IMG/VR virus record: IMGVR_UViG_3300046003_005119
Coordinates: 1 to 62,259 of that record
DNA length: 62,259 bases
Source of the DNA: a virus
Lineage: Duplodnaviria > Caudoviricetes
Strand: one strand, 5' to 3'
A program made the position numbers and the translations under genes. Each line of letters starts with the position of its first letter. Position 1 is the stretch's first letter. Shown here in pieces: positions 11,065 to 58,993 of this stretch. Below the pieces are notes generated by a model, which saw only the letters and a list, made by a program, of their open reading frames with translations, did no database searches and was not told the DNA's origin.

Positions 11065-11141
11065 TGGCGATCCTGGGAGGAATCGAACCCCCGACCCGCC
11101 GCTTAGAAGGCGGCTGCTCTATCCGGCTGAGCTACAGAATC
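11065..11141 (-). tRNA. trnR-UCU: tRNA-Arg(UCU)
   Basis: GATTCTG/CAGGATC acceptor stem, TAGCTCAG..GGATAGAGC D arm, anticodon loop CT-TCT-AA, GGTTCGATTCC T arm, encoded CCA. Confidence 0.95.
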
Positions 11142-31373: not shown

Positions 31374-32420
31374 TTATGCTTCGCGAGTCACCAGACGGGC
31401 GAACTTGATCATCTTGCGCTCCGGATAGACACGGTTCCAGGAAGTCGCATCATCCAGATCGCTGTTCGCCGGACCACCGTCGGGAACACCAGCCATCACG
31501 AAGGCGTGACCAGCGGGGTGCATGGACCACATGACGCGCGAATACAGCACGTCCTGACCGCCGCCATTGCCGCCTCCGGGCTTGCGATCGACTTCGGTCG
31601 CCACCGGAGGAGAGCCGACGCCGAGCTGAGTCGCGCCGGAGCCGAACAACCAAGTGTCATAGACGGAGCCCGTCCGAGGCAGACCGTCATCAACGATGAC
31701 TTCACGGCCCAAGAAGGTGGGAATCTGGATCTCGCCGCGAGCGTCGGGGATGAAGTCGATCAGGTTGTTTTTCTGCATCCGGTTGTAAACGACCGAGTGG
31801 ACAGCGACAGCAACCAGATCTTCCTGCGAATCGCCCATCGTTTGGGCGGTATCCAGGAAGGCTTCAGCCGAGAAGTTCGTCACACCATCGACGAAGGAAG
31901 CGCCGGAGATGTTGTTCGCATAGTCGCCCGAATCGTTCGCAGCGTTGTCAGCGATGACGCCGTTCCAGGTCGCGATGAAAGCGGTCTGCAGACGACGAAC
32001 CCAATAGGCCGAGACGCGGGAAGCGATCGACTGCATCGGATCAACACCAGCGAGAATCGCAGCGAGGTCGGTGGACGACCACGAGTTGTTCCGGTTGAGG
32101 CGAACAGCGATTTCTTTCAGAGTGCCGGTTTTCAGCGGATTCGGCGGACGAACAACGCCGGAGGGCAGCGAGGCGTCAGCGTCGGCGAACGGAACCGAGG
32201 TATCGGACGAGACGCGATCAGCGTCGTTATCCAGATCGCGGAACGACGGAACTTGGAAGGTCAAGCCACCGCCGCCGAGCAGGGTGTCCAAAGATTCCGA
32301 GCGAGCGAGCAGACCCGACTGAACCAGTCGCGACTTCTCTTCGGTCAGTTGCTGCATATAGGGGGTGAAGATCTCGGGAACGATAACGTCGCTCACCCGA
32401 GTCGCGGGACCTGCGGCCAT
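31374..32420 (-). CDS. Major capsid protein
   Basis: T.VSDVIVPEIF..Y, DPM..IA..V..YW, VIVDDGLP, W.RVY.E.K.I. Confidence 0.9.
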   Translation of the reverse strand: MAAGPATRVSDVIVPEIFTPYMQQLTEEKSRLVQSGLLARSESLDTLLGGGGLTFQVPSFRDLDNDADRVSSDTSVPFADADASLPSGVVRPPNPLKTGTLKEIAVRLNRNNSWSSTDLAAILAGVDPMQSIASRVSAYWVRRLQTAFIATWNGVIADNAANDSGDYANNISGASFVDGVTNFSAEAFLDTAQTMGDSQEDLVAVAVHSVVYNRMQKNNLIDFIPDARGEIQIPTFLGREVIVDDGLPRTGSVYDTWLFGSGATQLGVGSPPVATEVDRKPGGGNGGGQDVLYSRVMWSMHPAGHAFVMAGVPDGGPANSDLDDATSWNRVYPERKMIKFARLVTREA

Positions 32421-32507
32421 GAGATTGTCCTTTCATTGGCGCTTGAGGAAGGTGAGCGAACCCATGTTCGGCTCCAATGTCTGAAGCCAATGGCTCCAAT
32501 GACAATG

Positions 32508-32536
32508 ACCTTACCCTAGCGCCGCAAGAAAGGCAA
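32508..32536 (-). promoter_or_regulatory. sigma70-like promoter for the capsid gene
   Basis: TTGCCT-N17-TAAGGT. Confidence 0.5.
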
Positions 32537-32551
32537 TAGCTGTTTGATATG

Positions 32552-32590
32552 AAAATAGCCCGAGACGCGGGAGGAGGTGCGTCTCGGGCT
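32552..32590 (-). terminator. Intrinsic terminator-like hairpin with CCUCCUCCC loop
   Basis: 12-bp stem 32557-32568/32579-32590 followed by AUUUUC on the minus strand. Confidence 0.7.
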
Positions 32591-32962
32591 TCTCTACCAT
32601 CTAACCTCCCTCACCGGACAGTGAGATCTACGGTCGACATACCAGTTGTCCGTCTGGCTCGGTAGGATGTGAGGGGATGGTCTGCTGCTGACGCCCCTCG
32701 CGCCTCGTTCTGTCACCTCAGACCTTGAACCAATACGATACGGGAATACGTATTGACTTACCTTCATGACGGAAACTGGGGTGAACAGCGCCAGTCACAA
32801 AGTCCCGGTAACTAACTGAATTCCGAACGGCCTCCGGCACTGGGGACGTATATACCGGAGGCCGTTAGACCAGTGGAGCGCGGCGAGGTAGGCTACCAAA
32901 CCATCAAGCCGCGCACCCTTGGCCTTGCTTACACAATGCCCCAAGCGGCACGTCTAAGCAAG
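32552..32962 (-). ncRNA. Putative structured ncRNA (~410 nt)
   Basis: No ORF of 60 aa or more; at least six stems and a possible pseudoknot (see findings). Confidence 0.6.
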
Positions 32963-32963
32963 C

Positions 32964-33794
32964 TCATTTTTTCACGGTCGGGCGGGTCGCACCAACTTTC
33001 GATCCAGCAGCTTTCGCCATAGCCTCGGCGACAGCCATGCCTTTCTCACGAACGACAGCGCCCTGAGCAGTCATGTTCCAGGAATTCGCAGCCCACGGGT
33101 TCGCCTCACCACCGAAGCCACCACCACCGCCTCCGGCACCGCCACCAGCGGAGGCGGGCCACCAGTGAGGACGCTGTTTCTGCATTTCCTTCATGAAGTC
33201 TTTCACGTCGAGACCAGCGGTCAGCCCGTTCACACCAGCCTTGACGATGAACTTGCCGCTCTCGTCGCGCTCGAGATAGCTTTGGGCAATCAGCTCGATA
33301 TCAGCGATCGCGGTCGGAACAACCTTCATCTCGGTCGCCACAGCACGAATTGCATCGCTCATGTCACGACGTTGAAGGCCATTCTTCAGATCGTCGCGCT
33401 CCTGCTTCACGGTCGTCAACTCAGCAGTTGTGTCACGAAGTTGGCGTTCCAACGGAGCCGTCTTCTGAACCAGACGATTCTCGACAATCTGCTGGATCTT
33501 GGTCTCATCGATCTTTCCAGCCGCAGCAGCTTCGAGTTCAGCGACACGATCAAGCGTGGTCAAGACTTCATCAGGCTTCTTGCCCAAAGAAAGCCACGGC
33601 TTCAACGCTTCTTTCGCAGCGGCGTGATCAGCGCGTTCCTTGCGAAGGGCTTCCTGCACGTTGGAGACATCGGACTGAGTTTTCAGCCCATTGATTCCGG
33701 TCAGAACAGCCTTGCCATCTTTCTCCGTGAACAGAGAACGAAAGTTTTCGGGAACTGCCGAGATAGTGTCGTAGGAGAGTTCGAGCGTGTCCAT
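32964..33794 (-). CDS. Capsid scaffolding protein
   Basis: Coiled coil, Gly-rich linker, NPW...SWN.T.QG; between portal and capsid genes. Confidence 0.8.
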   Translation of the reverse strand: MDTLELSYDTISAVPENFRSLFTEKDGKAVLTGINGLKTQSDVSNVQEALRKERADHAAAKEALKPWLSLGKKPDEVLTTLDRVAELEAAAAGKIDETKIQQIVENRLVQKTAPLERQLRDTTAELTTVKQERDDLKNGLQRRDMSDAIRAVATEMKVVPTAIADIELIAQSYLERDESGKFIVKAGVNGLTAGLDVKDFMKEMQKQRPHWWPASAGGGAGGGGGGFGGEANPWAANSWNMTAQGAVVREKGMAVAEAMAKAAGSKVGATRPTVKK

Positions 33795-33818: not shown

Positions 33819-35330
33819 TCACTTGGCTGATTTTTGTTTCGGTTCCGAAGGCGGATCACCCGATATCGGATTGTCCGGGTCTTTGTTCGGTTGGTCTGGA
33901 GACAAATCGCCGGTCTTTGCCTTGGCGAAGACGAAGTCATCCTCGTCCTCCTTCTTGGCTTCAGCGATTTCTTCTTCGAACGAGCGAGTCGTCATGCGGC
34001 GCTTGCGAGCAAGATCGTGCATGGTTTTCGCGCTGATCGGGAAGCCGAGGTTGCGAGCAGTCGCCATTTCCACCATCGTCTGACCGGTGAGAGGCATCTC
34101 GCCAAATTCTTTGTTCGGTTTGACCTTGACTTCCTCTGGGTTCTCACCCATCCAGATAGCACAGGTCTTCAGGATGCTTTCGAGAGCGAGCGCACCAGTA
34201 TCAACAATCTGGTTCATGTCAGCGGTGCGAGCCGCGACACGGATCCTAAGGCTGTCACCGCTCTCACGTTCACGACTCGTCGTGTCCAGCGTTTGGGCTC
34301 CCATCGAGCCGGCACGGGCTTCAAGACGCTGAAGAGCTTCACGCTGCTCAGAAAGCCCAGTGGAGTTCACGCCGATATATTTCGCATCCGCGCCCATCGG
34401 GAGATCAACTCTCGCTCCGACACCAGTTCTCACCGTATCATCTTCAGCGAAGTTACCGCCGATTGTAACAAACGTGTCTTGACCCTGCATGAACAGATTC
34501 TGACGATAATCTGCTTCGGAGCGATAGATCGTCATGCAGAGGTTGCCGAGATCCAAAAGCGGCGGATCATCAACATCAGAAGTCACATCACACGAGTTGA
34601 TGATGACGAATGGAATATTCTGGAGAGTCTTGCCGCGCCAAGTCGGAGCCTTGAGTTTCGTGGTAGAATACTCGGTATCACCGAACACTCCCTGCACATA
34701 AAGACCACGAGATTCGTTTTCCAACTCGTCACCGATGATAAGAACACGATACTTCTCATCAGTCTCCCAGTTGAAGCCATCCGTCCGCTTGTTCTCAGTC
34801 TCGTCGAGGATGACGAAATTCAGAGTCTGAGGAATGACCTGATCAGAGCGGCCATCGTCCCAGTTGATGATTCTCTCTGCGACATACGTCGTCAGATACG
34901 GCAGATCTTCTCCAGGAGCAGGATTCGTCGGCAGATCAGCCATGAGACCGACTCGCCCAGTGATGAGCTGCTCAGTGTTGATCTTCCGGAGGAGAACTGG
35001 CAGCGGCTCACCCTTCGAACTCCGAATATTCTGCATCGATTTCGGTAGCTCGATGATCGGAGGCTGCGAGTGCATCATGCCGACTGCCATCTGCACAGCT
35101 TCACGCGTGAAGTTCGGAAATCTCGCTCGAACCTTCATGGCATTGTATGCCATCTGACCGACAGCAGTCTCAGACTTGCCGAATCCAGTCGCAATCTGAG
35201 AAGCAGTCGCTGGCAGATAAAGCGCGTTCTTCGACTTCACCTGACGCTCACCTCGATAAGCGTCACGCATGAGCGTCCAATCAGAATTGGTCGCCGAGAA
35301 CTGAGGATGTTTTGAGCTGAGAGTTACCAT
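33819..35330 (-). CDS. Portal protein (DUF4055-like)
   Basis: HPQ.....W..MRD...GE..VK....YLP, IPFV, PPLLDL; follows terminase. Confidence 0.85.
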   Translation of the reverse strand: MVTLSSKHPQFSATNSDWTLMRDAYRGERQVKSKNALYLPATASQIATGFGKSETAVGQMAYNAMKVRARFPNFTREAVQMAVGMMHSQPPIIELPKSMQNIRSSKGEPLPVLLRKINTEQLITGRVGLMADLPTNPAPGEDLPYLTTYVAERIINWDDGRSDQVIPQTLNFVILDETENKRTDGFNWETDEKYRVLIIGDELENESRGLYVQGVFGDTEYSTTKLKAPTWRGKTLQNIPFVIINSCDVTSDVDDPPLLDLGNLCMTIYRSEADYRQNLFMQGQDTFVTIGGNFAEDDTVRTGVGARVDLPMGADAKYIGVNSTGLSEQREALQRLEARAGSMGAQTLDTTSRERESGDSLRIRVAARTADMNQIVDTGALALESILKTCAIWMGENPEEVKVKPNKEFGEMPLTGQTMVEMATARNLGFPISAKTMHDLARKRRMTTRSFEEEIAEAKKEDEDDFVFAKAKTGDLSPDQPNKDPDNPISGDPPSEPKQKSAK

Positions 35331-35366: not shown

Positions 35367-36905
35367 TCAATAATGTCCAGAAGTTGAGCCAGTTCCGCCC
35401 ATATTCGAGATATGACGAACGAAATATCTCGTTTCGTCAGCGATGTGATCTTCGGCATCCGTGTTCACGTCGTCCTGATCTTTCTCATCTCTGGGCAAAA
35501 CTGGCACCGTTTCGATGAATGACAGACATTCGTCGAAGATGAACATTCCAGGCTGTTCACGAGGATACATGAGAAGGACATCCTCTTTAGTCGGATGTTT
35601 TCTCATCGTCGGATGAGCATTTTTCAGCCTCTGACGCATCTGGTTCCAGCCTGTCACACGCGATCCAGGACGTTTATCAGCCGGAGCCCACTGAATTCCA
35701 GGATACTTGTTTCCATCATCCAATCTGACTTTGACTTTCATGTCTGTCGCGATGCAGTTGCCGTTCTCAGCGGCGAAAATCTGCGAGTCAGCGACTCCGC
35801 CCTTCACTCGACACCAGTCTTCACCTGGAATTCTCCAGTTCCACGCCAGCTCTTTCTCGACAATTCCAGCCGCGATGTCAGTCGCGAGCATTCGGAGACC
35901 CTCGTTGGGCTTTCCTGTCGAGCCATACCATTCTTTCACACGGAAAGAGTCTCCCTTGATCGTCGAGCGCCATGATCCATCACGAAGCTGAACGTCTTCT
36001 CCATTCGAAATGGCCCACCAGCCCACAGAGAAAGGCTTCGATTCTCCCCAGTCGAAGGAGCGGATGATACGCCAATTCAACGGTATCTCAAAGTTTGAGA
36101 TTACATTAAATCGAGGTTCCCATACATCGTCGAACATACCGCCAGCGACGATGTCCCATGACCCTTCGAGCCATGCTTTCTTCTCCGCCGCGTTTCTCGC
36201 TGACGCTGCAATCTTCTGTTTGTATTCAGGATCGGCCTCGAGCAGAGCCGTGTTCTCGTCGATATGCGAGTGGATGCTCAGGCGAGGAGGCTCGGAGTTC
36301 CCTTCTTCATCTTTCAGATCGCGACGGACGATCATGTTCATGCTGTTGGGCTTGAACCTGTGTTTCACCCAGTTGTGACCGGGACCATATGGGTTCGTCG
36401 TCGCGCGAACCATACGAGGCATTCCCTTTGTCGACGAACGACAACACGAGAACATCCTCTTGTAGCCCTCATCATTCGCCCAGTTGCACAACTCTTCCCA
36501 ACCAATCCAGGGATATTCGTGACCGTGATAGTTCCAATAGTCGTCAGCTTTCATGAACTGGCGAAGCAGAAGCTGTTCTCCTCCAGGAAACGTCCAGACA
36601 TGCTCGGAGTTGTTGAATTTCGCTTCCGGCCAGATCTGAGGGATCCACTTTTTCGTTTTCGAGATAATATCCGTCAATTGTTTATACGTTTGACGGAATA
36701 GAATTCCCTTCCAGCCAGCCCCGTATCCCTTTCCGACGTGCATACAGAAGCTCATAATCAATGAGTCTGTCTTGCCGCCTCCGCGAGTTCCTTCGAACAA
36801 GACTTCGAAGATTGGGTGAGCTGCGAGGAAGGCCTCTTGGCTTCCTCGCATGGGTCGCCAAATCACGTTCTTGGGGAATTGCATACTCATTTCAGCACAT
36901 ACCAT
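35367..36905 (-). CDS. terL: Terminase large subunit
   Basis: GTRGGGKT, WEEL, TTNPYGPGH.WVK, RSFDWG, EDHIADE.RY. Start probably 36887 or 36881. Confidence 0.95.
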   Translation of the reverse strand: MVCAEMSMQFPKNVIWRPMRGSQEAFLAAHPIFEVLFEGTRGGGKTDSLIMSFCMHVGKGYGAGWKGILFRQTYKQLTDIISKTKKWIPQIWPEAKFNNSEHVWTFPGGEQLLLRQFMKADDYWNYHGHEYPWIGWEELCNWANDEGYKRMFSCCRSSTKGMPRMVRATTNPYGPGHNWVKHRFKPNSMNMIVRRDLKDEEGNSEPPRLSIHSHIDENTALLEADPEYKQKIAASARNAAEKKAWLEGSWDIVAGGMFDDVWEPRFNVISNFEIPLNWRIIRSFDWGESKPFSVGWWAISNGEDVQLRDGSWRSTIKGDSFRVKEWYGSTGKPNEGLRMLATDIAAGIVEKELAWNWRIPGEDWCRVKGGVADSQIFAAENGNCIATDMKVKVRLDDGNKYPGIQWAPADKRPGSRVTGWNQMRQRLKNAHPTMRKHPTKEDVLLMYPREQPGMFIFDECLSFIETVPVLPRDEKDQDDVNTDAEDHIADETRYFVRHISNMGGTGSTSGHY

Positions 36906-37832: not shown

Positions 37833-38315
37833 CTATGCCTTGGCAGGCGCAGGCGCGGGCGCGGCAGCGGTTGCCACAGGCGCGGCAGCGGCAGCGGCAG
37901 CGGTTGCCACAGGCACAAGCCAAGCCTGCGCGGCGGCCCATTGCGGCATGTTGTGGCGCTGCCAGCCCCCATTTGGCGGGGCAAGCGTGGGGCTTGCGGC
38001 TGCACTGGCCACCAGCGCGGCGCGGTATTGCGCCAAGGTAAAGCCGTTGGGCTGCACCTTGGCAAGCGCCTGTGCCACTTGGCAGGCAAAAGCGCGGTGG
38101 CCACGCTGCCCCACAGGCCAGCCAGCGCTTGCGGCTGCACTGTAGGGCATATAGGTGTAAAGTGCCGCGCCAATGGCCACAGCAACGGGCGCGGCGGTTG
38201 CGGTTGCAACGGGCGCGGCGGGCGCGGGCGCGGTTGCGGTTGCGGTTGCAACGGGCGCGGGGGCAGTAGCCTTGCCAGCGGTTGCGGTTGCGGTGTTTTT
38301 GTTAGCTTGTGCCAT
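37833..38315 (-). CDS. Ala/Thr/Pro-rich protein with no Asp or Glu (160 aa)
   Basis: Preceded by the AGGCTACCA leader and a promoter, followed by hairpins; lies wholly inside the GA/TC-free island. Confidence 0.7.
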   Translation of the reverse strand: MAQANKNTATATAGKATAPAPVATATATAPAPAAPVATATAAPVAVAIGAALYTYMPYSAAASAGWPVGQRGHRAFACQVAQALAKVQPNGFTLAQYRAALVASAAASPTLAPPNGGWQRHNMPQWAAAQAWLVPVATAAAAAAAPVATAAAPAPAPAKA

Positions 38316-38369
38316 TGTGGTAGCCTTTGGTTACAGGGTAGCAGCACCATTGCCGCTATGCCCTGCCCC

Positions 38370-38399
38370 TATATAGCGCCATAGCGCGGCAAAAGCCAA
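38370..38399 (-). promoter_or_regulatory. Promoter of the Ala-rich gene
   Basis: TTGGCT-N18-TATATA. Confidence 0.5.
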
Positions 38400-38524
38400 G
38401 TAACATGTTGTTACAGATTGTAACAATTTGTTACCGGAAATGCAGTAACGTTTTGTTGCAGGCTGTAACAATTTGTTACCGGAAATGCAGTAACGTTTTG
38501 TTACAGCCTGTAACAATTTGTTAC
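38400..38524. repeat. Array of six GTAAC-N5-GTTAC palindromes (45-bp tandem period)
   Basis: Boxes start at 38400, 38420, 38445 (one mismatch), 38465, 38490, 38510. Confidence 0.9.
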
Positions 38525-38693
38525 CGGAGACGAGAGACCGAACGAGAGACCTACCGACGAAGATGAAGATGACGAGTGAGATCTCCTCTGTCGGTTCTGT
38601 CGTATCGGTTCATGACTGTCGGTTCGATGATGAAGAAGATGATGAGTGTCGAGCCCAAGAAGAAAGAGCCTCAATCGGCTCTTTCTTGTCGGT

Positions 38694-38882
38694 TCAGTCG
38701 TAGACGAACGACTCGAGGTAAGTGTCAATCACATCGCCATCTTTCGAAACGAACTCTGTCACCTCATACCCGTGGTGGTTCACATTAGTCCGCTTCGTGA
38801 GACCCTCTATCTCTGCTGGGACAGAGCGATAGATCGTGACATGACCTCGCCGATTGGTGCGAATATACATCTTATCGCTCAT
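38694..38882 (-). CDS. Small early protein
   Basis: ATGA-coupled to the upstream ORF; GGAGG RBS. Confidence 0.6.
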   Translation of the reverse strand: MSDKMYIRTNRRGHVTIYRSVPAEIEGLTKRTNVNHHGYEVTEFVSKDGDVIDTYLESFVYD

Positions 38883-39088
38883 GCCCGACCCTCCGCACGA
38901 ATGGCCTGACGCACGGCCAGCGGCGTCTCAACGCCGTGGGCGAAGGCGGGGCGGCAGACTTGGATGACGCCGCCGCACTGTGAAAAGCGACGAGTCAACG
39001 CGAAGATCTGACGCTGGAGCGACTGACGGTCGTCGGCCAGACGACCAGTGAACTCTGCGCGCTCTTTATTCCAAGGATTGATCTGCAT
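38879..39088 (-). CDS. Small early protein
   Basis: AGGCTACCAAATG leader. Confidence 0.65.
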   Translation of the reverse strand: MQINPWNKERAEFTGRLADDRQSLQRQIFALTRRFSQCGGVIQVCRPAFAHGVETPLAVRQAIRAEGRA

Positions 39089-39286
39089 TTGGTAGCCTTT
39101 CGGTTTGGGTTAAGTTGCCGTAAGACCATGTTATTACACAGAAATTTAAGAAGCAACTCATTTATATCCAATCCTCCGGACTCATATCGGAAGAGGCTCC
39201 CGATGAAGAAGATGAAGAAGATGAAGATGACGAGTCTCTCATCCAGATCTTCTTCATCATCTTCATCTTCTGTATGCTCTCAGACA

Positions 39287-39316
39287 ACAGAAGAGGTGGA
39301 ATTCCACCTCTTCTGT
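39287..39316. repeat. Perfect 30-bp palindrome / terminator-like hairpin
   Basis: ACAGAAGAGGTGGAA-TTCCACCTCTTCTGT. Confidence 0.8.
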
Positions 39317-39325
39317 CGGCCCTTT

Positions 39326-39592
39326 CTACGAGGTCAGGACGATATCGGCGAGATACGACAGACCGTCGCAGATATCTTGGGTGGTAAAGATTTCGGCGCC
39401 GCTGACGGTGTGTGCGATGACCAAGCCGTTCTCCATGATGAACAACTGGCCCGAGACTTCGTAGCCTTCTTCAAAGTGACGCAGCCACACCATGGATTCG
39501 TCGATGATTTCAAAACGAACTTCGGGGATGACCTCATCACAGTGAAACTTGATGTCGGCGATTTCGGCGGGGGTGAACTTGCGATTGAGCAT
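39326..39592 (-). CDS. Small acidic early protein
   Basis: Leader motif before ATG 39592 (MLNRKFTPAEIADI). Confidence 0.65.
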   Translation of the reverse strand: MLNRKFTPAEIADIKFHCDEVIPEVRFEIIDESMVWLRHFEEGYEVSGQLFIMENGLVIAHTVSGAEIFTTQDICDGLSYLADIVLTS

Positions 39593-39749
39593 AGCTGGTA
39601 GCCTTTCTTGGGTTGCCTTGCCCTTACAGTATAGCCCAAAGAGGGTGGAGAGTGTAGCACTATGAATCGTGGTCTTCGTGGCCGGAAGATGATGAAGATC
39701 TCGTCGGAAGAGGCCGACGAGCATAGAGAAATCCCTATGCTCTGTCGGT

Positions 39750-39965
39750 TCAGGCTAGCGCCCCTGCAACTGCTTTTTCAAAGGCTTCCAGCTTTTCCAC
39801 CACTTCGACCATGTTCGTGCATGTCGGGCTCATGGTCATCTCGATCGTCCCCCAAAAGTTCATCAACTTCCGCGTGGGGTGGTGGTATTGCGCCACAAAT
39901 TCTTCTTCCGGATCCTGCCCTTCGCGGTAGTAAAGCAGGTAATCGCCAGTGTCTTTCGTCAGCAT
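39750..39965 (-). CDS. Small early protein
   Basis: Own promoter and leader motif. Confidence 0.65.
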   Translation of the reverse strand: MLTKDTGDYLLYYREGQDPEEEFVAQYHHPTRKLMNFWGTIEMTMSPTCTNMVEVVEKLEAFEKAVAGALA

Positions 39966-40000
39966 TTGGTAGCCCTTTCATTTGGTAGCCTTGCCCTTAC

Positions 40001-40029
40001 AGTATGGCAGTTAGAAATCTGAGAAGCAA
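40001..40029 (-). promoter_or_regulatory. Early sigma70-like promoter (copy 1)
   Basis: TTGCTT-N17-CATACT; same sequence at 40413-40441. Confidence 0.75.
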
Positions 40030-40068
40030 TTCATATATGTCCAGTCTTCTTCATCTATATGAGATACC

Positions 40069-40103
40069 GATGAAGATGAAGATGAAGATGAAGATGAAGA
40101 TGA
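40069..40103 (+). repeat. (GATGAA)n intergenic microsatellite
   Basis: Five full units plus GATGA; related tracts in neighbouring spacers. Confidence 0.85.
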
Positions 40104-40144
40104 TTCCATCGGAGGAGGCCGACGAGTCCCCACACTCTGTCGGC

Positions 40145-40378
40145 TCACTCGGCTCTTAGAATGAGCTTCATGAGCTCATACAGATCGTCACAGAACGTAA
40201 CGAACCCGAGCTCGCTGATATAGATATGCTGCTCTCCGCTGATGTAGCCGACGTCTCCCATATCTGTGAAGACTTTGTTATCCTCTGTATCAGCGATACC
40301 GTTACCGAGTGTGCAGATATACATGGAGATGTCCTCCAGTTCTGCTTCGGTGAAGTCACGCGGCTCATAGATTTTCAT
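40145..40378 (-). CDS. Small acidic early protein
   Basis: Own promoter and leader motif. Confidence 0.65.
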   Translation of the reverse strand: MKIYEPRDFTEAELEDISMYICTLGNGIADTEDNKVFTDMGDVGYISGEQHIYISELGFVTFCDDLYELMKLILRAE

Positions 40379-40412
40379 TTGGTAGCCCTTTCATTGGTAG
40401 CCTTGTCCTTAC

Positions 40413-43311: not shown

Positions 43312-43642
43312 TCGCGAACTCCTCCTGCCAACGAACAACGTTCGGGTCCGAGCCATTCACGGTTCCATGCAGCTCATCATAGCGAGACTGCGCTTCCCAG
43401 TCCGGTTGCGACGCGACATACGCCGAGTCTGCACAAGCCTTGTCGAACCGGACAACGGCCTCGGCATAGTCGGCGCAGTCGAAGTAATCGTCTTCCCACC
43501 CATCGGGATCGGTGTTGAGAGCGACGACTGACAGGCTCCCGTCGAAGCACATCACCATCCCAACATGGTCTCCAATCTGCATCACCCCAACTGGGCAGGT
43601 GAACGCGCGCTCAACGCGACGCTTCATACGCTTTTCGTTCAT
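43301..43642 (-). CDS. Early hypothetical protein
   Basis: GGAGGCTACCATG leader and promoter. Confidence 0.65.
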   Translation of the reverse strand: MNEKRMKRRVERAFTCPVGVMQIGDHVGMVMCFDGSLSVVALNTDPDGWEDDYFDCADYAEAVVRFDKACADSAYVASQPDWEAQSRYDELHGTVNGSDPNVVRWQEEFANEH

Positions 43643-43668
43643 GGTAGCCTCCATACGCTTCTGATACC

Positions 43669-43697
43669 AGTATGGTCCCAGAAGCGTATAATGACAA
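43669..43697 (-). promoter_or_regulatory. Early promoter
   Basis: TTGTCA-N17-CATACT. Confidence 0.75.
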
Positions 43698-43713
43698 GTT
43701 CTACTTGTCTAGG

Positions 43714-44316
43714 TCAGATTGGACCTTTGTCCATCGCTTCGAGCATATCAGACTTTCTCTTCAGATCGTATAGACCTTGAAGCATGAACACGACGGTGTT
43801 CTTCTGATCACGACAGTCCTGCAGAGCGTGATGCGTCGTCTCGCTCGTGGGTGCGTCCTTCATCAGACCGAGTCTCTGCATCAAACGCTTCAGAGTTCGC
43901 ATATCCATATCGTCACGGAACGTTGGAAACTGGAAGATTTCCGGTCCCATCGATTCAGCCAGCGACCGCATGATGACAGCATCAAACGACGGAGAGTTCG
44001 ACCAGACATCGCCGACGCCATGTTCTCCCATCATTCGAGCAATTTCACTGAAGACTGTTCCAGTTGTCACAATCTCCTGAGGCCCACGAGCCCAAGAGGA
44101 AACCTCCTGCTCTTTCCAGAACTGAACAGTGGAGGAATCGATGGTCCGTCCGCGAAGGATCTGTGGAAGAATATCGAGATGGAGCAGCTTCTCTTCCAAG
44201 ACTTTTCCGTCGTCTCCGAAGAGCGGGTCGTTGAAGGCCAGGAGGCCGACTTGAAACACGACAGCCGATGGACGAATGTCCAGTGTTTCGATGTCAATCA
44301 TAAGATGGTTCGCCAT
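43714..44316 (-). CDS. DEDDh 3'-5' exonuclease (Rv2179c-like)
   Basis: LMIDIETL, WSNSPSFD..I, D.RT, HHALQDC. Confidence 0.8.
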   Translation of the reverse strand: MANHLMIDIETLDIRPSAVVFQVGLLAFNDPLFGDDGKVLEEKLLHLDILPQILRGRTIDSSTVQFWKEQEVSSWARGPQEIVTTGTVFSEIARMMGEHGVGDVWSNSPSFDAVIMRSLAESMGPEIFQFPTFRDDMDMRTLKRLMQRLGLMKDAPTSETTHHALQDCRDQKNTVVFMLQGLYDLKRKSDMLEAMDKGPI

Positions 44317-44449: not shown

Positions 44450-44593
44450 TCAGAAGGCCGCTTTTAGCATCTCGACTGGCGTGATGCAGGCAGGGTTTTC
44501 CCAGGAATCACAACCCATCACGATGTTCATCAAAATGAATGTGATCAGCATGGTCATAAGCACGATTGCGAGAATCATCAGAAGATGTTTCAT
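44450..44593 (-). CDS. Small membrane protein
   Basis: Leader motif; TM then GC.SW..P.C; promoter TTGTTT-N17-TATACT at 44621-44649. Confidence 0.6.
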   Translation of the reverse strand: MKHLLMILAIVLMTMLITFILMNIVMGCDSWENPACITPVEMLKAAF

Positions 44594-44651
44594 GGTAGCC
44601 TCCATAGGTTTCAGAAGGCCAGTATAGCACTCAGAAGTCAAAGAAACAAAC

Positions 44652-44951
44652 TCAGCCTGTCGCCTTTTCCCAGTGCTCATAGTTGAACATCTCAGGGATA
44701 TAGTTCTCAAGGATGAGAATCGTCTCAACTCGCTGGTGCTTCCCTCTGTCTGGGCGAAACAGGACGCCGACGCTCAACTTCAGTTCACCCTCCATGAGAG
44801 GTTGAGAGAGCTTCGCTCCTGGGATATGGTCACCGAGGTCAGGGCCGACATAGATTCCCATGCACCTGAAAGGCTTGTGCCACTCAGGAGGATTGGGATT
44901 CCAGAAACCGACTCGCAATCCGCTTGTCACTCTCATTGCTTTTGGACCCAT
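44652..44951 (-). CDS. Hypothetical protein
   Basis: ORF in the operon; GAGG RBS. Confidence 0.5.
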   Translation of the reverse strand: MGPKAMRVTSGLRVGFWNPNPPEWHKPFRCMGIYVGPDLGDHIPGAKLSQPLMEGELKLSVGVLFRPDRGKHQRVETILILENYIPEMFNYEHWEKATG

Positions 44952-47226: not shown

Positions 47227-47381
47227 TTGCGACCTCCATCAATCGCAACCAAGCCACAGCGACCGACTTCGATGCCGATATACTGAAGCTCAGATTCTGC
47301 GCTCTTCATGGTGCAGCTATACATATCATAGCAGACCATATCCCACAGATCCTTGAACTTTCCTCTGAAATAGAACTTCAT
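47223..47381 (-). CDS. Small early protein (52 aa)
   Basis: GGAGGCTACCATG leader; MKFYFRGKFKDLW; ATGA-coupled downstream. Confidence 0.55.
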   Translation of the reverse strand: MKFYFRGKFKDLWDMVCYDMYSCTMKSAESELQYIGIEVGRCGLVAIDGGRK

Positions 47382-47406
47382 GGTAGCCTCCTTGCTTTAC
47401 CCTACC

Positions 47407-47435
47407 AGTATGCCTCCGGAGGGCGCGGATGACAA
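47407..47435 (-). promoter_or_regulatory. Early promoter
   Basis: TTGTCA-N17-CATACT. Confidence 0.75.
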
Positions 47436-47447
47436 GTTCTAGTTGTC

Positions 47448-47699
47448 CTATTTCACCAACCAGAGTTCAAAGCCTAGAGCCTGGATCAGTGTCAGCATCG
47501 TGGTATGACGAGGCCACTTTGTTCGTCCGCTACGAATGGAGAACAGCGTCGATTTGTGAACGCCGATCCTGTTGGCGAGTCGCTCGATATCCTCTTGGGC
47601 ATAGAGGGCATCTCGCAAGGCGTCCATCAACGCCTCGCGATCAGAAACCCTGACGGCCCGCTTCTCCTTGTTCAGGACAAATTGGACGATGTTTGTCAT
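47448..47699 (-). CDS. XRE-like HTH protein
   Basis: IERLANRIGVHKSTL.SI.SG.T..P...T...L..ALG. Confidence 0.75.
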   Translation of the reverse strand: MTNIVQFVLNKEKRAVRVSDREALMDALRDALYAQEDIERLANRIGVHKSTLFSIRSGRTKWPRHTTMLTLIQALGFELWLVK

Positions 47700-48144: not shown

Positions 48145-48380
48145 GACTTCTGCCCTCCACTGACGATTTCATCGAACATCTGTTGCAGGTCGTCAAGGGC
48201 AATCTGCAACTGCCCCCGCTTATACTTCTTCCCAGTGATTTCACCAGCCTTGCGAAGCATGTTGGTCGGGGTGTATGAGCGATTGACCGTGAAGCCGGTT
48301 TTGAGATAGAACTTGATCGCTCCTTTGATTGCCACAAGAACGAAGCTATCGACTTCAGCTTTGCCAGTGAATGTTGTCAT
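48141..48380 (-). CDS. Early hypothetical protein
   Basis: Leader motif and promoter. Confidence 0.65.
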   Translation of the reverse strand: MTTFTGKAEVDSFVLVAIKGAIKFYLKTGFTVNRSYTPTNMLRKAGEITGKKYKRGQLQIALDDLQQMFDEIVSGGQKS

Positions 48381-48405
48381 GGTAGCCTCCTGGGTTTACT
48401 AGACC

Positions 48406-48434
48406 AGTATGCGCTCTGACGTCTGAGATGACAA
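48406..48434 (-). promoter_or_regulatory. Early promoter
   Basis: TTGTCA-N17-CATACT. Confidence 0.75.
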
Positions 48435-48444
48435 ACTAAACGTA

Positions 48445-48657
48445 TCAGCTCAGGAAGGCAACTTGTCCAAGATCTATCTTATCCAGAACAGGTCTGCGCT
48501 CCATCGCATGAAGAGCATATGTATGTGCTGAGACGATATTCAAGTTCTCATCGAGGCCGAGCATCGGGCATGAAGTTGCGTTCACAGCGAGAACAAGCCA
48601 ATACCGAGTTGGCTTGCCTCCCTGAGCGGCGTAGAGATTCCCAGGCTCGACTTTCAT
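48445..48657 (-). CDS. Hypothetical protein
   Basis: ATGA-coupled. Confidence 0.55.
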   Translation of the reverse strand: MKVEPGNLYAAQGGKPTRYWLVLAVNATSCPMLGLDENLNIVSAHTYALHAMERRPVLDKIDLGQVAFLS

Positions 48658-52109: not shown

Positions 52110-52175
52110 TTCGGTAGCCTCCATGGTATAACCTGTTTATACAGGCTACACCATAGAGGCTCAGAGCGACAAGTT

Positions 52176-56331: not shown

Positions 56332-56558
56332 GCGACACCATAAATGATGTTGAGAATAGTCTTCGAATCGATGATCGTCTGACAGATCTTCCGGCGATCA
56401 ACCATCGCCTGACCGAGTTGCATCGCAGCATCGATCTTCGGCCCAGTGACGCCAGAAGTCTTCTGCTCACGATATTTCTCGAGATGTTTGGTGCAGATCT
56501 CGATAATTTCCAACTCGAGCTCTGCCTTTGCAATCAGATCACCAATACTGCTCTTCAT
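56328..56558 (-). CDS. Early hypothetical protein
   Basis: Leader motif and promoter. Confidence 0.65.
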   Translation of the reverse strand: MKSSIGDLIAKAELELEIIEICTKHLEKYREQKTSGVTGPKIDAAMQLGQAMVDRRKICQTIIDSKTILNIIYGVA

Positions 56559-56583
56559 GGTAGCCTCCTTAGCTGCTTTATAC

Positions 56584-56612
56584 AGTATGCGCTCTGATAA
56601 AGCCTATGACAA
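56584..56612 (-). promoter_or_regulatory. Early promoter
   Basis: TTGTCA-N17-CATACT. Confidence 0.75.
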
Positions 56613-56614
56613 AT

Positions 56615-58993
56615 TCAAAATGGGTCTTCAGGTTGGTCAAGATCGAGTTGAACAGGATCTTGCCAATCGATATGTCCGTAGATCTTCGACCAAGACTCTC
56701 TGCAAGAATCTAATGTTCCAAAATCATAGAAATACGCTCTCCGAGCAACCCTATGAACCATCCCTCTATCGTCCTGCTCTTCGACTGTGATCCTTCTTTG
56801 AGTTTTGCCGATATGAGGGCAAACTCGTGAAAGAAAGCGGCCGAGGGCAGTTTCATTTCCGCGGCGTGAGAACTTCCACTTCTCAGCATACATCGTGAAA
56901 TCGTGAGTCACGGCGTCGCAGGGAATATCTCTCTGCCATTGGGCATCCTGATCCAGAATTCTCCCGTTCTGGAGTTTACGGAACCACCATTCTTCATCGA
57001 TGCCCATGGAAAGCAGCTTCTGCTCCTGAAGCGCCGAGGTGTCAGGGACATCGCGAACTTCGAAGCCTTTCAGGTCAATGGTCTGGAGATGGTAGAGAAG
57101 GGCTTCGAAGCCTCCGTTCTCCATTTGTTCAATCAGAGCCTTGAAGAACTTCTTGTCCTGCTTATTCTTCTCTCCCATGTCCAGCATGAAGTAACGACGT
57201 TCGTCTCCAGTAGCACGAATGACATGAGGGTCATTCGCGGCCATGATCAGGTGAACGAAGTTCGGGTAGGGTTCGGTGTCGACTCCTTTGGCTTCGATTG
57301 GGATACTGTCTTCTGTGACGAGCATCTTGAGGACAGATTCGTGTCTTTTGTCGCCAGCGAAGAAAGCCTCGTCGGCGAAAAGTAGGATGACGTCCCGTAG
57401 GTGAGCGTTGAAGTTCCCAACAAGGTGCGACGGATTCGCGACATGAAGATGGTGTCTCCCAAATAGTCTGCCGAACATGGTGGCGAAAAGGGACTTACCA
57501 GTTCCCTTCCCACCTCGAAGAACGATAGCAACTTCTCCAGGAGAAGCAGGGTTCTGAACTGCCCTCGCCATCCATTTGATGAGATAGTCATAGTAGGCTG
57601 TATTTCCTGAACACACGTTGTTCAGGATATGTGCGAGATACAGTGAGCAATCTCCAGGAACTGGTTCAACATTGAAGCCTCTCCACAGATTGTAAACTCC
57701 TGGCTGATCTCCCTGAGGCATGAACTTCATCGTATCGAACTGCCTCCTCATCTTGTGGTTGATCCAATACTTTCCAAGAGGAACCATAATCGGCAAACCT
57801 TTGTCGGTCGTGCCAACTTGGATCATGATGTTTGAATAACGATTACGCAGATCTTCAAAGGATGAGAGAGTAATTCTCGTCCTGTGCAGGATATCATCCG
57901 TGATCTCTTCAATCACGCGACATTTCCCACCGATGTTTCCAATGATTGCGTGACGATCGTTCATCATTGTGAGGTTCGGATCCTCACAATACTCTTTCGC
58001 TCGCTTAATCTGTCTCCGACAATATCTGTCTGCTCCACCCTTCAGTTCGATGACCGACGATGAAATGCCCCAGTCAGGATCGGTCAAAAGAGCGTAGATC
58101 ACATGATCAGGAACGTTGCAGCGGACCAGAGAACAAACGCAATCGAACACCCAAGCAGAGCGGGAGTTATCGTCCTTCTTGGGCTGATCAGGGTGCATCC
58201 CTTGGGCAACAATCACCTTCACTCGATCTGGCACGTTCCACTGATCAAGTTCTGATAGATCTTGTATCTTCTCGACGTTTCCTGGAATATCGACAGTGAC
58301 ACCGTATTCACCACCGTCGCGAGAAGGTCCAGCGGTCTGGACAGCCTGAGCTTTCTTGAACTCCGACAACTCGTAGCTGTTCGTTGTGAATTGCAAGAGA
58401 ACAGCAAGTTCCTCGACTCGACCTTTCTTGCGTTTCTTTGCGTCAGGAACATTGATCGATCCAGGAAGTCGCATGATTCGATCGACGTTGTGACAGTGGT
58501 CACCACCAAAGATCTGCTCGAGGCGTTTGTTGTAGAGTTCGAAATCCTCGGCGAGTTTTGTATCACCATCGATCTTCACCGGAGTCTTCAGACGCCAGAA
58601 CGCCTGATATCCGCCGCCAGAGAATATGATACAGGTTGGATTAGGTAGACCCTTCGGCAAACGATCTGTCAACATGCCCAAGGCGCGAGCACGTTCTTCC
58701 TGAAGGTCCTGACCATCTGCGGGGTCGATATCAATATGCAGCCACTCAGCGGAAGCGATATCTTCTTTGTTCGCCTTACTCGTGAGGTTGCCCTTCACAG
58801 AGTTGACATGGAAATAGATATTCCGATCGCCGTTGTATTTCTCGATCCAGGAGTAAGCCTCTTTCTCCTGTTTGCTCGAGAACGTAGTTGTCGTGATGCC
58901 TTTCCGATCGGTGCTTATGCTCGTGAGAACCCACGGTCCGTTTGGATTCCACTTTTTGAGGAACTCTACTGAACGCTTGCTGTCACCCTGCAT
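56615..58993 (-). CDS. Primase-helicase (RepB-like AEP primase plus SF3-type NTPase)
   Basis: HIDID, SGGGYQAFW, RIMRLPG; GGKGTGKS, FADE, ERRY. Confidence 0.9.
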   Translation of the reverse strand: MQGDSKRSVEFLKKWNPNGPWVLTSISTDRKGITTTTFSSKQEKEAYSWIEKYNGDRNIYFHVNSVKGNLTSKANKEDIASAEWLHIDIDPADGQDLQEERARALGMLTDRLPKGLPNPTCIIFSGGGYQAFWRLKTPVKIDGDTKLAEDFELYNKRLEQIFGGDHCHNVDRIMRLPGSINVPDAKKRKKGRVEELAVLLQFTTNSYELSEFKKAQAVQTAGPSRDGGEYGVTVDIPGNVEKIQDLSELDQWNVPDRVKVIVAQGMHPDQPKKDDNSRSAWVFDCVCSLVRCNVPDHVIYALLTDPDWGISSSVIELKGGADRYCRRQIKRAKEYCEDPNLTMMNDRHAIIGNIGGKCRVIEEITDDILHRTRITLSSFEDLRNRYSNIMIQVGTTDKGLPIMVPLGKYWINHKMRRQFDTMKFMPQGDQPGVYNLWRGFNVEPVPGDCSLYLAHILNNVCSGNTAYYDYLIKWMARAVQNPASPGEVAIVLRGGKGTGKSLFATMFGRLFGRHHLHVANPSHLVGNFNAHLRDVILLFADEAFFAGDKRHESVLKMLVTEDSIPIEAKGVDTEPYPNFVHLIMAANDPHVIRATGDERRYFMLDMGEKNKQDKKFFKALIEQMENGGFEALLYHLQTIDLKGFEVRDVPDTSALQEQKLLSMGIDEEWWFRKLQNGRILDQDAQWQRDIPCDAVTHDFTMYAEKWKFSRRGNETALGRFLSRVCPHIGKTQRRITVEEQDDRGMVHRVARRAYFYDFGTLDSCRESWSKIYGHIDWQDPVQLDLDQPEDPF

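Follow-up and report, generated by a model that had tools for sequence, protein, structure and literature searches.

A terminator-like hairpin with a conserved anti-Shine-Dalgarno loop in the scaffold-capsid gap of an uncultured siphophage

The non-coding gap between the scaffold and major capsid genes of the phage analysed here holds, on the minus strand, a 12-bp terminator-like 3' hairpin (HpC) that is directly followed by a U-rich tail and that carries the anti-Shine-Dalgarno (anti-SD) motif CCUCCUCCC in its loop. The hairpin and tail, their position, and the conservation of the loop over a stem that changes by compensatory exchanges are direct observations. We propose that HpC may be a terminator or 3' hairpin with a selected anti-SD seed loop that would work like one module of the cuckoo RNAs, a reading which, from the sequence comparisons below, we hold to be evenly poised between right and wrong.

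The window, by which we mean the whole stretch of DNA that was analysed (62,259 nt), is the whole IMG/VR virus record IMGVR_UViG_3300046003_005119 (62,259 bp; completeness estimate 98%). The genes of this siphophage lie nearly all on the minus strand of the 62-kb record, and their PHROG matches follow the usual siphophage order of terminase, portal, scaffold, major capsid and then tail genes; the phage also carries a tRNA-Arg(TCT) gene (window 11065-11141, minus strand). The scaffold-capsid gap is 543 nt long and non-coding, and HpC, inside it and just upstream of the capsid promoter-like site, closes its non-coding stretch. Both promoter-like sites of the gap, P_s and P_mcp, were assigned by eye, and a consensus promoter scan of the window called neither; at the position of P_s the relatives have TTGTCA/TTGCAA-17-TAnnnT. 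Small hairpins in the capsid 5'UTR (window 32456-32472, minus strand) are kept across relatives (GCGAACATGGGTTCGC-type, GATGACGTGACGTCATC in relatives). The genes, promoter-like sites and terminal hairpin are as follows.

35367-36905: terminase gene (PHROG match).
33819-35330: portal gene (PHROG match).
32964..33794, minus strand: head scaffolding gene, upstream neighbour of the hairpin region (phrog_206, E = 3.7e-37).
32931..32963, minus strand: TTGCTT-17-CATTGT, the promoter-like site P_s, which immediately follows the scaffold stop codon (by eye; position conserved in relatives).
32557..32590, minus strand: HpC, 12-bp terminator-like 3' hairpin with loop ACCUCCUCCC (sequence and fold; sub-threshold ar14 match over 32553-32631).
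32547..32556, minus strand: U-rich tail AUUUUCAUAU, directly 3' of HpC (sequence).
32507..32539, minus strand: promoter-like site P_mcp, TTGCCT-17-TAAGGT, about 10 nt past the HpC tail and upstream of the capsid 5'UTR (by eye, from relatives).
31374..32420, minus strand: major capsid gene, downstream neighbour of the hairpin region (phrog_247, E = 6.7e-99).

Read on the minus strand, HpC consists of the arm AGCCCGAGACGC (32590-32579), the loop ACCUCCUCCC (32578-32569) and the arm GCGUCUCGGGCU (32568-32557), with the anti-SD motif at 32577-32569. Nine of its 12 pairs are G-C, and the hairpin alone folds at -23.9 kcal/mol. In its 81-nt context the energy is -33.4 kcal/mol (z = -4.29), and none of 200 shuffles folds equally well. 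The first-pass annotation had described a minus-strand 12-bp hairpin with an anti-SD loop, and the sequence read and the fold agree that it is real. The motif itself is the universal anti-SD sequence and resembles the universal 3' end of 16S rRNA. HpC is not listed by a strict terminator scan that admits loops of up to 8 nt and asks for at least 5 T in an 8-nt tail window, because its loop is longer than 8 nt and its tail, with 4 consecutive U, has fewer than 5 T in such a window. Another terminator-like hairpin of the phage, at 55262-55236, is followed by a similar tail, TTTTCATAT. On the plus strand, GGGAGGAGG was considered as an SD sequence; a start codon at usable spacing is absent and the site is buried inside the hairpin, and this reading was rejected.

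The 9-mer by itself is within chance expectation in the window, with one copy against 0.54 expected and at least one copy in 39 of 100 shuffles. Its placement is what is unusual: among the 36 strong minus-strand hairpins of the window, a CCUCC-type loop occurs in HpC alone, and from the 9-mer count and this number of hairpins we roughly estimate that the motif would fall exactly in a strong-hairpin loop about 1e-3 times or less per window.

We compared the region upstream of the capsid gene among capsid relatives (80 of 122 stretches from viral contigs and 80 of 139 from metagenome contigs), which gave 148 usable upstream regions including the window's own, 104 of them distinct. Close relatives, with capsid identity of at least 79%, share one gap layout as read by eye: the scaffold stop, TTGTCA/TTGCAA-17-TAnnnT, a hairpin with the loop (G)GU(G/A/U)UGGUAGCC, a GC-rich terminator hairpin, TTGCAA-17-TAnnnT, a conserved 5'UTR, and the capsid gene. 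In most of them this GC hairpin and its T-rich tail occupy the stretch from 170 to 125 nt ahead of the capsid ATG. The apex of this terminator differs by lineage, being UUGAGC..GCUC in most and elsewhere ACGCAGCA, ACCCCACC, GAAA or CAAA. In most of these terminators the outer stem differs around an unchanged inner apex, CCGG-UUGAGC-N-GCUC-CCGG (for example in L085, -171..-138, and in L007, -164..-134, counted from the capsid ATG), and it seems that this apex can be exchanged as a cassette.

Among the 104 distinct upstream regions, CCUCCUCCC stands in a terminator loop only in the window and in L020/L021, two contigs of one lineage that are identical in this region. Between the window and L020, all 11 shared stem pairs of the terminal hairpin form in both sequences and 7 of them are changed on both sides, with a stem identity of 8/22 nt and a loop motif identity of 9/9, as counted on a centre-anchored ungapped alignment in a single comparison of two independent lineages (a MAFFT alignment of the three hairpins was mis-registered). 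A loop kept at 9/9 on a stem kept at 8/22, with 7 compensatory pairs, does not look like a random terminator loop. Closer strains show no informative variation in the hairpin; of the DNA runs X2-X5 that were compared with the window, X2 yielded no matching contig, one contig of X4 spans 32456-32606 with 0 differences, and the one informative difference was an indel outside the hairpin, in a contig of X3. In the capsid tree the window and L020/L021 were grouped in 0 of 200 bootstrap trees, and the well-supported branches are compatible with one origin of the module to which HpC belongs.

This contrast bears on a first alternative, namely that HpC is an ordinary intrinsic terminator or a 3'-end protecting hairpin whose loop has no pairing role and is shared by descent or by chance. 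The relatives do have terminators at the equivalent position, with many apices, the 9-mer count is within chance, and no extended target of the loop was found at a phage ribosome-binding site (RBS). Neutral descent, however, should have altered the loop as well as the stem. The first-pass annotation had taken a loop that varies among relatives on a kept stem as the mark of an ordinary terminator, and the true homologue in L020 presents the reverse. The position and the varied apices in relatives uphold the terminator reading, and the one homologue that has the same loop speaks against a loop without a role; we consider the plain-terminator alternative doubtful, at a probability clearly short of even.

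HpC is the 3' part of a 115-nt module that recurs in L020/L021. The parts of this module and the elements upstream of it, all on the minus strand, are given below.

32875..32917, minus strand: HP1 hairpin, loop UUUGGUAGCCU (32900-32887), antisense to AGGCUACCA(AA) gene leaders (complementarity and folds).
32826..32866, minus strand: HP2, 15-bp hairpin GGCCUCCGG...CCGGAGGCC (compared by eye with GCGCCTCCGG...CCGGAGGCGC of the relatives L085/L086).
32666..32820, minus strand: strain-variable insert of 155 nt between HP2 and the module (one X3 contig is without it).
32551..32665, minus strand: 115-nt module made of P1, HpA, HpB, the purine tract, HpC and the first six tail bases (matching module in L020/L021 at 2263-2377).
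32665-32661 with 32598-32594, minus strand: P1 helix, CUACC with GGUAG, part of the 115-nt module.
32641..32658, minus strand: HpA, GCCAG/CUGGU stem with CGGACA in the loop (two pairs changed on both sides relative to L020).
32609..32626, minus strand: HpB, stem UCUCAC/GUGAGG, loop UGUCCG (the loop is invariant, and three stem pairs differ from L020 on both sides).
32605..32612, minus strand: purine tract GAGGGAGG, containing GGGAGG, which could pair with its complement CCUCCC in the HpC loop.

The loops of HpA and HpB, CGGACA and UGUCCG, are complementary to each other; both are 6 nt long and invariant, on stems that are compensatorily changed, and they may form a kissing-loop contact. The structure that we propose for the module has four helices, P1, HpA, HpB and the contact between the two loops. 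Its 21 pairs all form in both the window and L020, 5 of them changed on both sides, compared with 22-41.5% in slid controls, the structure having been derived from the same two sequences on which the pairing was tested. The 5' end of the module falls on an indel breakpoint. In one contig of a near-identical strain (X3), 32665 is followed after a single letter by 32821, so that the 155 nt separating HP2 from the module vary between strains. The insert showed no similarity to the other sequences gathered in the analysis. An ORF of 57 aa at 32594-32767 was rejected as a gene, having no PHROG match and spanning this insert. By our own reading, HP2 would correspond to the terminator stem of the relatives; in the window it has no U tail. 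The window and L020/L021 thus keep the older terminator stem without its U tail and then have the 115-nt module.

Searches for further copies of the module gave L020/L021 as the only true ones. A pattern for its 5' block matched two loci in viral contigs, the contig of L021 and a second one (L083) that by eye is coding-like sequence and was taken as a chance match. In the contigs of 185,579 species genomes the same pattern matched 74 loci, none of them real (0/74); one that had been flagged is part of an open frame spanning 274 codons or more. A pattern for the 3' half matched the L020 and L021 contigs only among viral contigs, and in the contigs of the 185,579 species genomes it matched three loci, none with a hairpin around the motif (0/3 real). 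With blastn against GenBank phages, the module gave matches only at E = 4, within coding genes.

The purine tract raises the alternative of an action in cis, by which the CCUCCC loop would pair with GGGAGG (32610-32605) in a pseudoknot or switch and so adjust termination and read-through into the capsid gene, or would mask the SD-like site beside an AUG (32599-32597). A 6-nt complement of the loop is indeed kept about 10-14 nt upstream of the hairpin in both lineages while the tract sequences differ: in the window GGGAGG lies 14 nt upstream of the hairpin, and L020 has GAGGAG at the position of the purine tract, which could pair with CUCCUC. The two tracts are, however, homologous and so not independent, tract-loop covariation is absent, and by our own reading the frames that follow the tract cross the motif in different phases in each lineage, without a conserved mini-ORF. 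For the same reason, and because the stem evolves by compensatory pairs, a small ORF starting at this AUG after GGGAGG was rejected as an explanation of the conserved motif, the L020 frames crossing it in other phases. We regard an action in cis as improbable.

In order to look at possible partners of the anti-SD loop in trans, we turn to complementary sites in the phage itself. On the sense strand there are 76 sites complementary to the HpC loop over at least 6 nt, 15 over at least 7 nt and 3 over at least 8 nt; none of these last three is at a start codon or RBS, and by eye all are inside coding sequence. The GGAGGCUACCAUG leaders, present in five exact copies, form only 5 bp with the loop (CCUCC:GGAGG). 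The earlier suggestion that the loop could target the GGAGGCUACCAUG leaders is not supported by these counts, the pairing being of 5 bp only and no site of at least 8 nt being found at a phage RBS.

The leaders have a longer complement elsewhere in the gap, in the loop of HP1. The coding strand has 16 copies of GGCUACC, at least 13 of them by eye between an SD sequence and a start codon, and a single copy of its complement, which lies in the HP1 loop. There are 20 sites complementary to this loop over at least 8 nt; 16 are of the AGGCUACCA type (8-11 nt), and at least 13 of those are on leaders between SD and start, for example GGAGGCUACCAUG and AAAGGGCUACCAAAUG. Such leaders are found at 43640, 44591, 47379, 48378 and 56556 (minus strand) and at about 38300-40400. 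Of 24 distinct upstream regions of close relatives, 17 contain GGUAGCC in the sense orientation and none (0/24) has it in antisense. When 15 HP1 regions were folded as single sequences, most of the folds had GGUAGCC within the apical portion of a stem-loop, and RNAalifold on the same 15 regions gave no useful consensus, the loop lengths differing. In two relatives (L014, L017) the HP1 loop is extended to ...GGUAGCCUCC(C), covering the SD sequence too. HP1 is a candidate anti-leader sRNA, and since its complementarity to the leaders is longer, the anti-leader role would be better served by HP1 than by the CCUCCUCCC loop. HP1 and HpC may lie on one transcript.

Some further observations concern the leaders themselves. 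Five exact GGAGGCTACCATG leaders (43640-43760, 44591-44710, 47379-47500, 48378-48500 and 56556-56680, minus strand) stand about 20-25 nt downstream of a promoter-like cassette, TTGTCAT-N16-CATACTGG, with one copy more divergent, and look like early-type promoter-leader units. At window 52116-52161 (minus strand) a 21-bp hairpin in which AGCCUCUAUGGUGUAGCCUGU is paired with ACAGGUUAUACCAUGGAGGCU buries an GGAGGCUACC leader just before the AUG, an arrangement that resembles leader masking in cis. At about 38300-40400 (minus strand) doubled leaders, such as ...GGCTACCAAATGAAAGGGCTACCAAATG..., twice follow CATACTGTAAGG; they may reflect tiny upstream ORFs or a duplication of leader units.

Taken together with HP1, the scaffold-capsid gap could encode a multi-seed regulatory RNA, with an anti-leader seed in HP1 and an anti-SD module at its end, that shuts down leader-bearing early-type genes. 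The HP1 loop (G)GU(G/A/U)UGGUAGCC would act as antisense to the GGAGGCUACCAUG/AAAGGGCUACCAAAUG leaders, which some 14-16 phage genes share; the 115-nt module, present in two lineages and possibly moved horizontally, would contribute kissing-type loops and, in its last hairpin, an anti-SD loop of cuckoo type, its cuckoo-like seed having evolved, or been captured, in the phage; and both seeds would act as a timing switch on translation. We put this wider model forward as speculative and think it unlikely to hold in full. If true, it would join an anti-SD seed to a second element antisense to the phage's own leaders and would provide a concrete model of RNA-based translation timing in an uncultured freshwater siphophage group.

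The narrower reading that we prefer, an anti-SD seed loop on a terminal hairpin, can be laid out as follows. The 115-nt module would have been added downstream of an older terminator in two phage lineages, and HpC would be the intrinsic-terminator-type 3' stem-loop that closes the scaffold-capsid non-coding region. Transcription would reach HpC either by starting at P_s or by read-through, and would probably terminate there. The CCUCCUCCC loop would be under sequence selection, most likely as an anti-SD seed, and the 3' end of the RNA would pair with GGAGG-type RBSs of mRNAs, from the phage or from its host, and keep the 30S subunit from binding, like the ar14 module. If true, a type of regulator described until now from chromosomes and plasmids of alphaproteobacteria would here be carried by a phage, in a version with one module, and our literature search for a phage-borne cuckoo-type case found none. 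If the loop has no seed function, HpC would be an ordinary terminator with an eye-catching loop.

The first-pass annotation had also read the loop as a sign of an alphaproteobacterial host. The nearest cultured relative, Alphaproteobacteria phage PhiJL001 (Mesyanzhinovviridae), does have an alphaproteobacterial host (63.8% capsid identity). The next ones, at 57-59% capsid identity, are phages of Pseudomonas, Xanthomonas, Variovorax and Sphingomonas, and the capsid relatives found in genomes (10 loci) have mixed MAG labels, Gammaproteobacteria and others. The motif is uninformative on the host because it is the universal anti-SD sequence, and with such mixed relatives and labels the data are neutral, neither for nor against an alphaproteobacterial host.

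As to the cuckoo family itself, the family description defines a cuckoo RNA by 2-4 adjacent hairpins with CCUCCUCCC in each loop, and gives a module geometry of a 24-50 nt hairpin with a motif-bearing loop of 9-27 nt (Reinkensmeier & Giegerich 2015, PMC4615179). Members of the family come from replicons of Rhizobiales or Rhodobacterales. The modules have a fixed loop and variable stems among homologues (PMC4615179; PMC10746234), and in ar14/NfeR1 the CCUCCUCCC motifs silence mRNAs by pairing with translation-initiation regions, the three motifs being redundant and each sufficient (PMC10746234). In the CcsR-type locus (CIN1 neighbourhood), a small upstream DUF1127 gene (ccaF1) is co-transcribed with the sRNAs (PMC8034643).

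With its 34-nt hairpin and 10-nt loop ACCUCCUCCC, HpC lies within the module geometry, and between the window and L020, two lineages only, it shows the invariant loop on a variable stem; it is a good match, in sequence terms, to a single cuckoo module. The motif count in the whole 62,259-nt record is one, compared with the 2-4 hairpins of the family, HpA and HpB having CGGACA and UGUCCG in their loops instead. An Rfam scan of the whole window at gathering thresholds returned tRNA only. In a permissive scan of 32000-33400 (1.4 kb), ar14 reached 33.6 bits, below its gathering score of 58.8, with E = 3.6e-4 for a search of that length. The third (3') hairpin of ar14 accounts for almost the whole alignment, and its consensus ...GcACCUCCUCCCgCG... 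is a near base-for-base match to HpC. CcsR1 (RF02791) was not reported in the window at E <= 10, and the L020 hairpin aligns to it at 28.2 bits against a gathering score of 65.3. The covariance-model check that had been proposed for cuckoo/CcsR thus went against family membership, with ar14 below its gathering score. A six-frame search of the record for DUF1127 (PF06568) gave 0 matches at E <= 1.

Because there is one motif, the scores are below gathering and the DUF1127 gene is absent, HpC is not a member of the cuckoo/ar14/CcsR family. What stands of the original cuckoo claim is the match to a single module and the loop that L020 keeps while its stem is changed; what falls is membership. The related alternative, that HpC is a true family member (ar14/CcsR) captured from an alphaproteobacterial host, would draw on the identical loop motif, a hairpin size within the family rules and the alphaproteobacterial host of PhiJL001. 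It is set against the single motif with unrelated neighbouring loops, the low scores in both the window (33.6 versus 58.8 bits) and L020 (28.2 versus 65.3), the missing DUF1127 gene, and the 185,579 species genomes in which no true copy of the module was found (0/74 and 0/3 real), and we regard it as highly improbable. The exact 14-mer GCACCTCCTCCCGC has at least 116 matches in IMG/VR and, among the matches listed, 8 are in a hairpin with a stem of at least 6 bp. Two of these eight have a second motif and look like two-motif ar14-like RNAs, L310:219-328 (plus strand) with 50.0 bits and L279:251-357 (minus strand) with 37.9 bits on ar14, both below the gathering score of 58.8.

Compared with Rho-independent terminators before a phage capsid promoter, HpC shares the GC-rich stem, the U-rich tail and a position conserved in relatives, and differs by its long (10 nt), sequence-conserved loop, its short tail (4 U) and its being uncalled by the scan. 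The P1/P7 c4 RNA and the P4 CI RNA are phage antisense RNAs that mask ribosome-binding sites. The RNA proposed here would resemble them in being a phage small RNA with short seeds against RBS regions of the phage's own mRNAs; its seeds would be the HP1 loop (9-11 nt to leaders) and a generic anti-SD loop. The C-rich (UCCC) loops of staphylococcal RNAIII are likewise C-rich loop seeds against SD regions (PMC4615179), but sequence, organism and architecture are unrelated to those of HpC. The closest comparison is to the cuckoo family (alpha-r14 = NfeR1/SmelC397, RF02344; CcsR1-4/RSs0680a-d, RF02791). Unlike these RNAs, which have 2-4 motif hairpins, HpC has one, and the hairpins before it carry unrelated, mutually complementary loops; it is phage-borne, lies between structural genes without a DUF1127 gene, is below the Rfam gathering scores, and may belong to a longer non-coding transcript of about 375 nt (estimated from the part coordinates). 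It shares with the family the identical motif, the 10-nt loop and the 34-nt GC-rich hairpin, with the ar14 consensus the position as last hairpin before a U-rich tail, and, with the family as described (PMC4615179; PMC10746234), a fixed loop on stems that vary between homologues.
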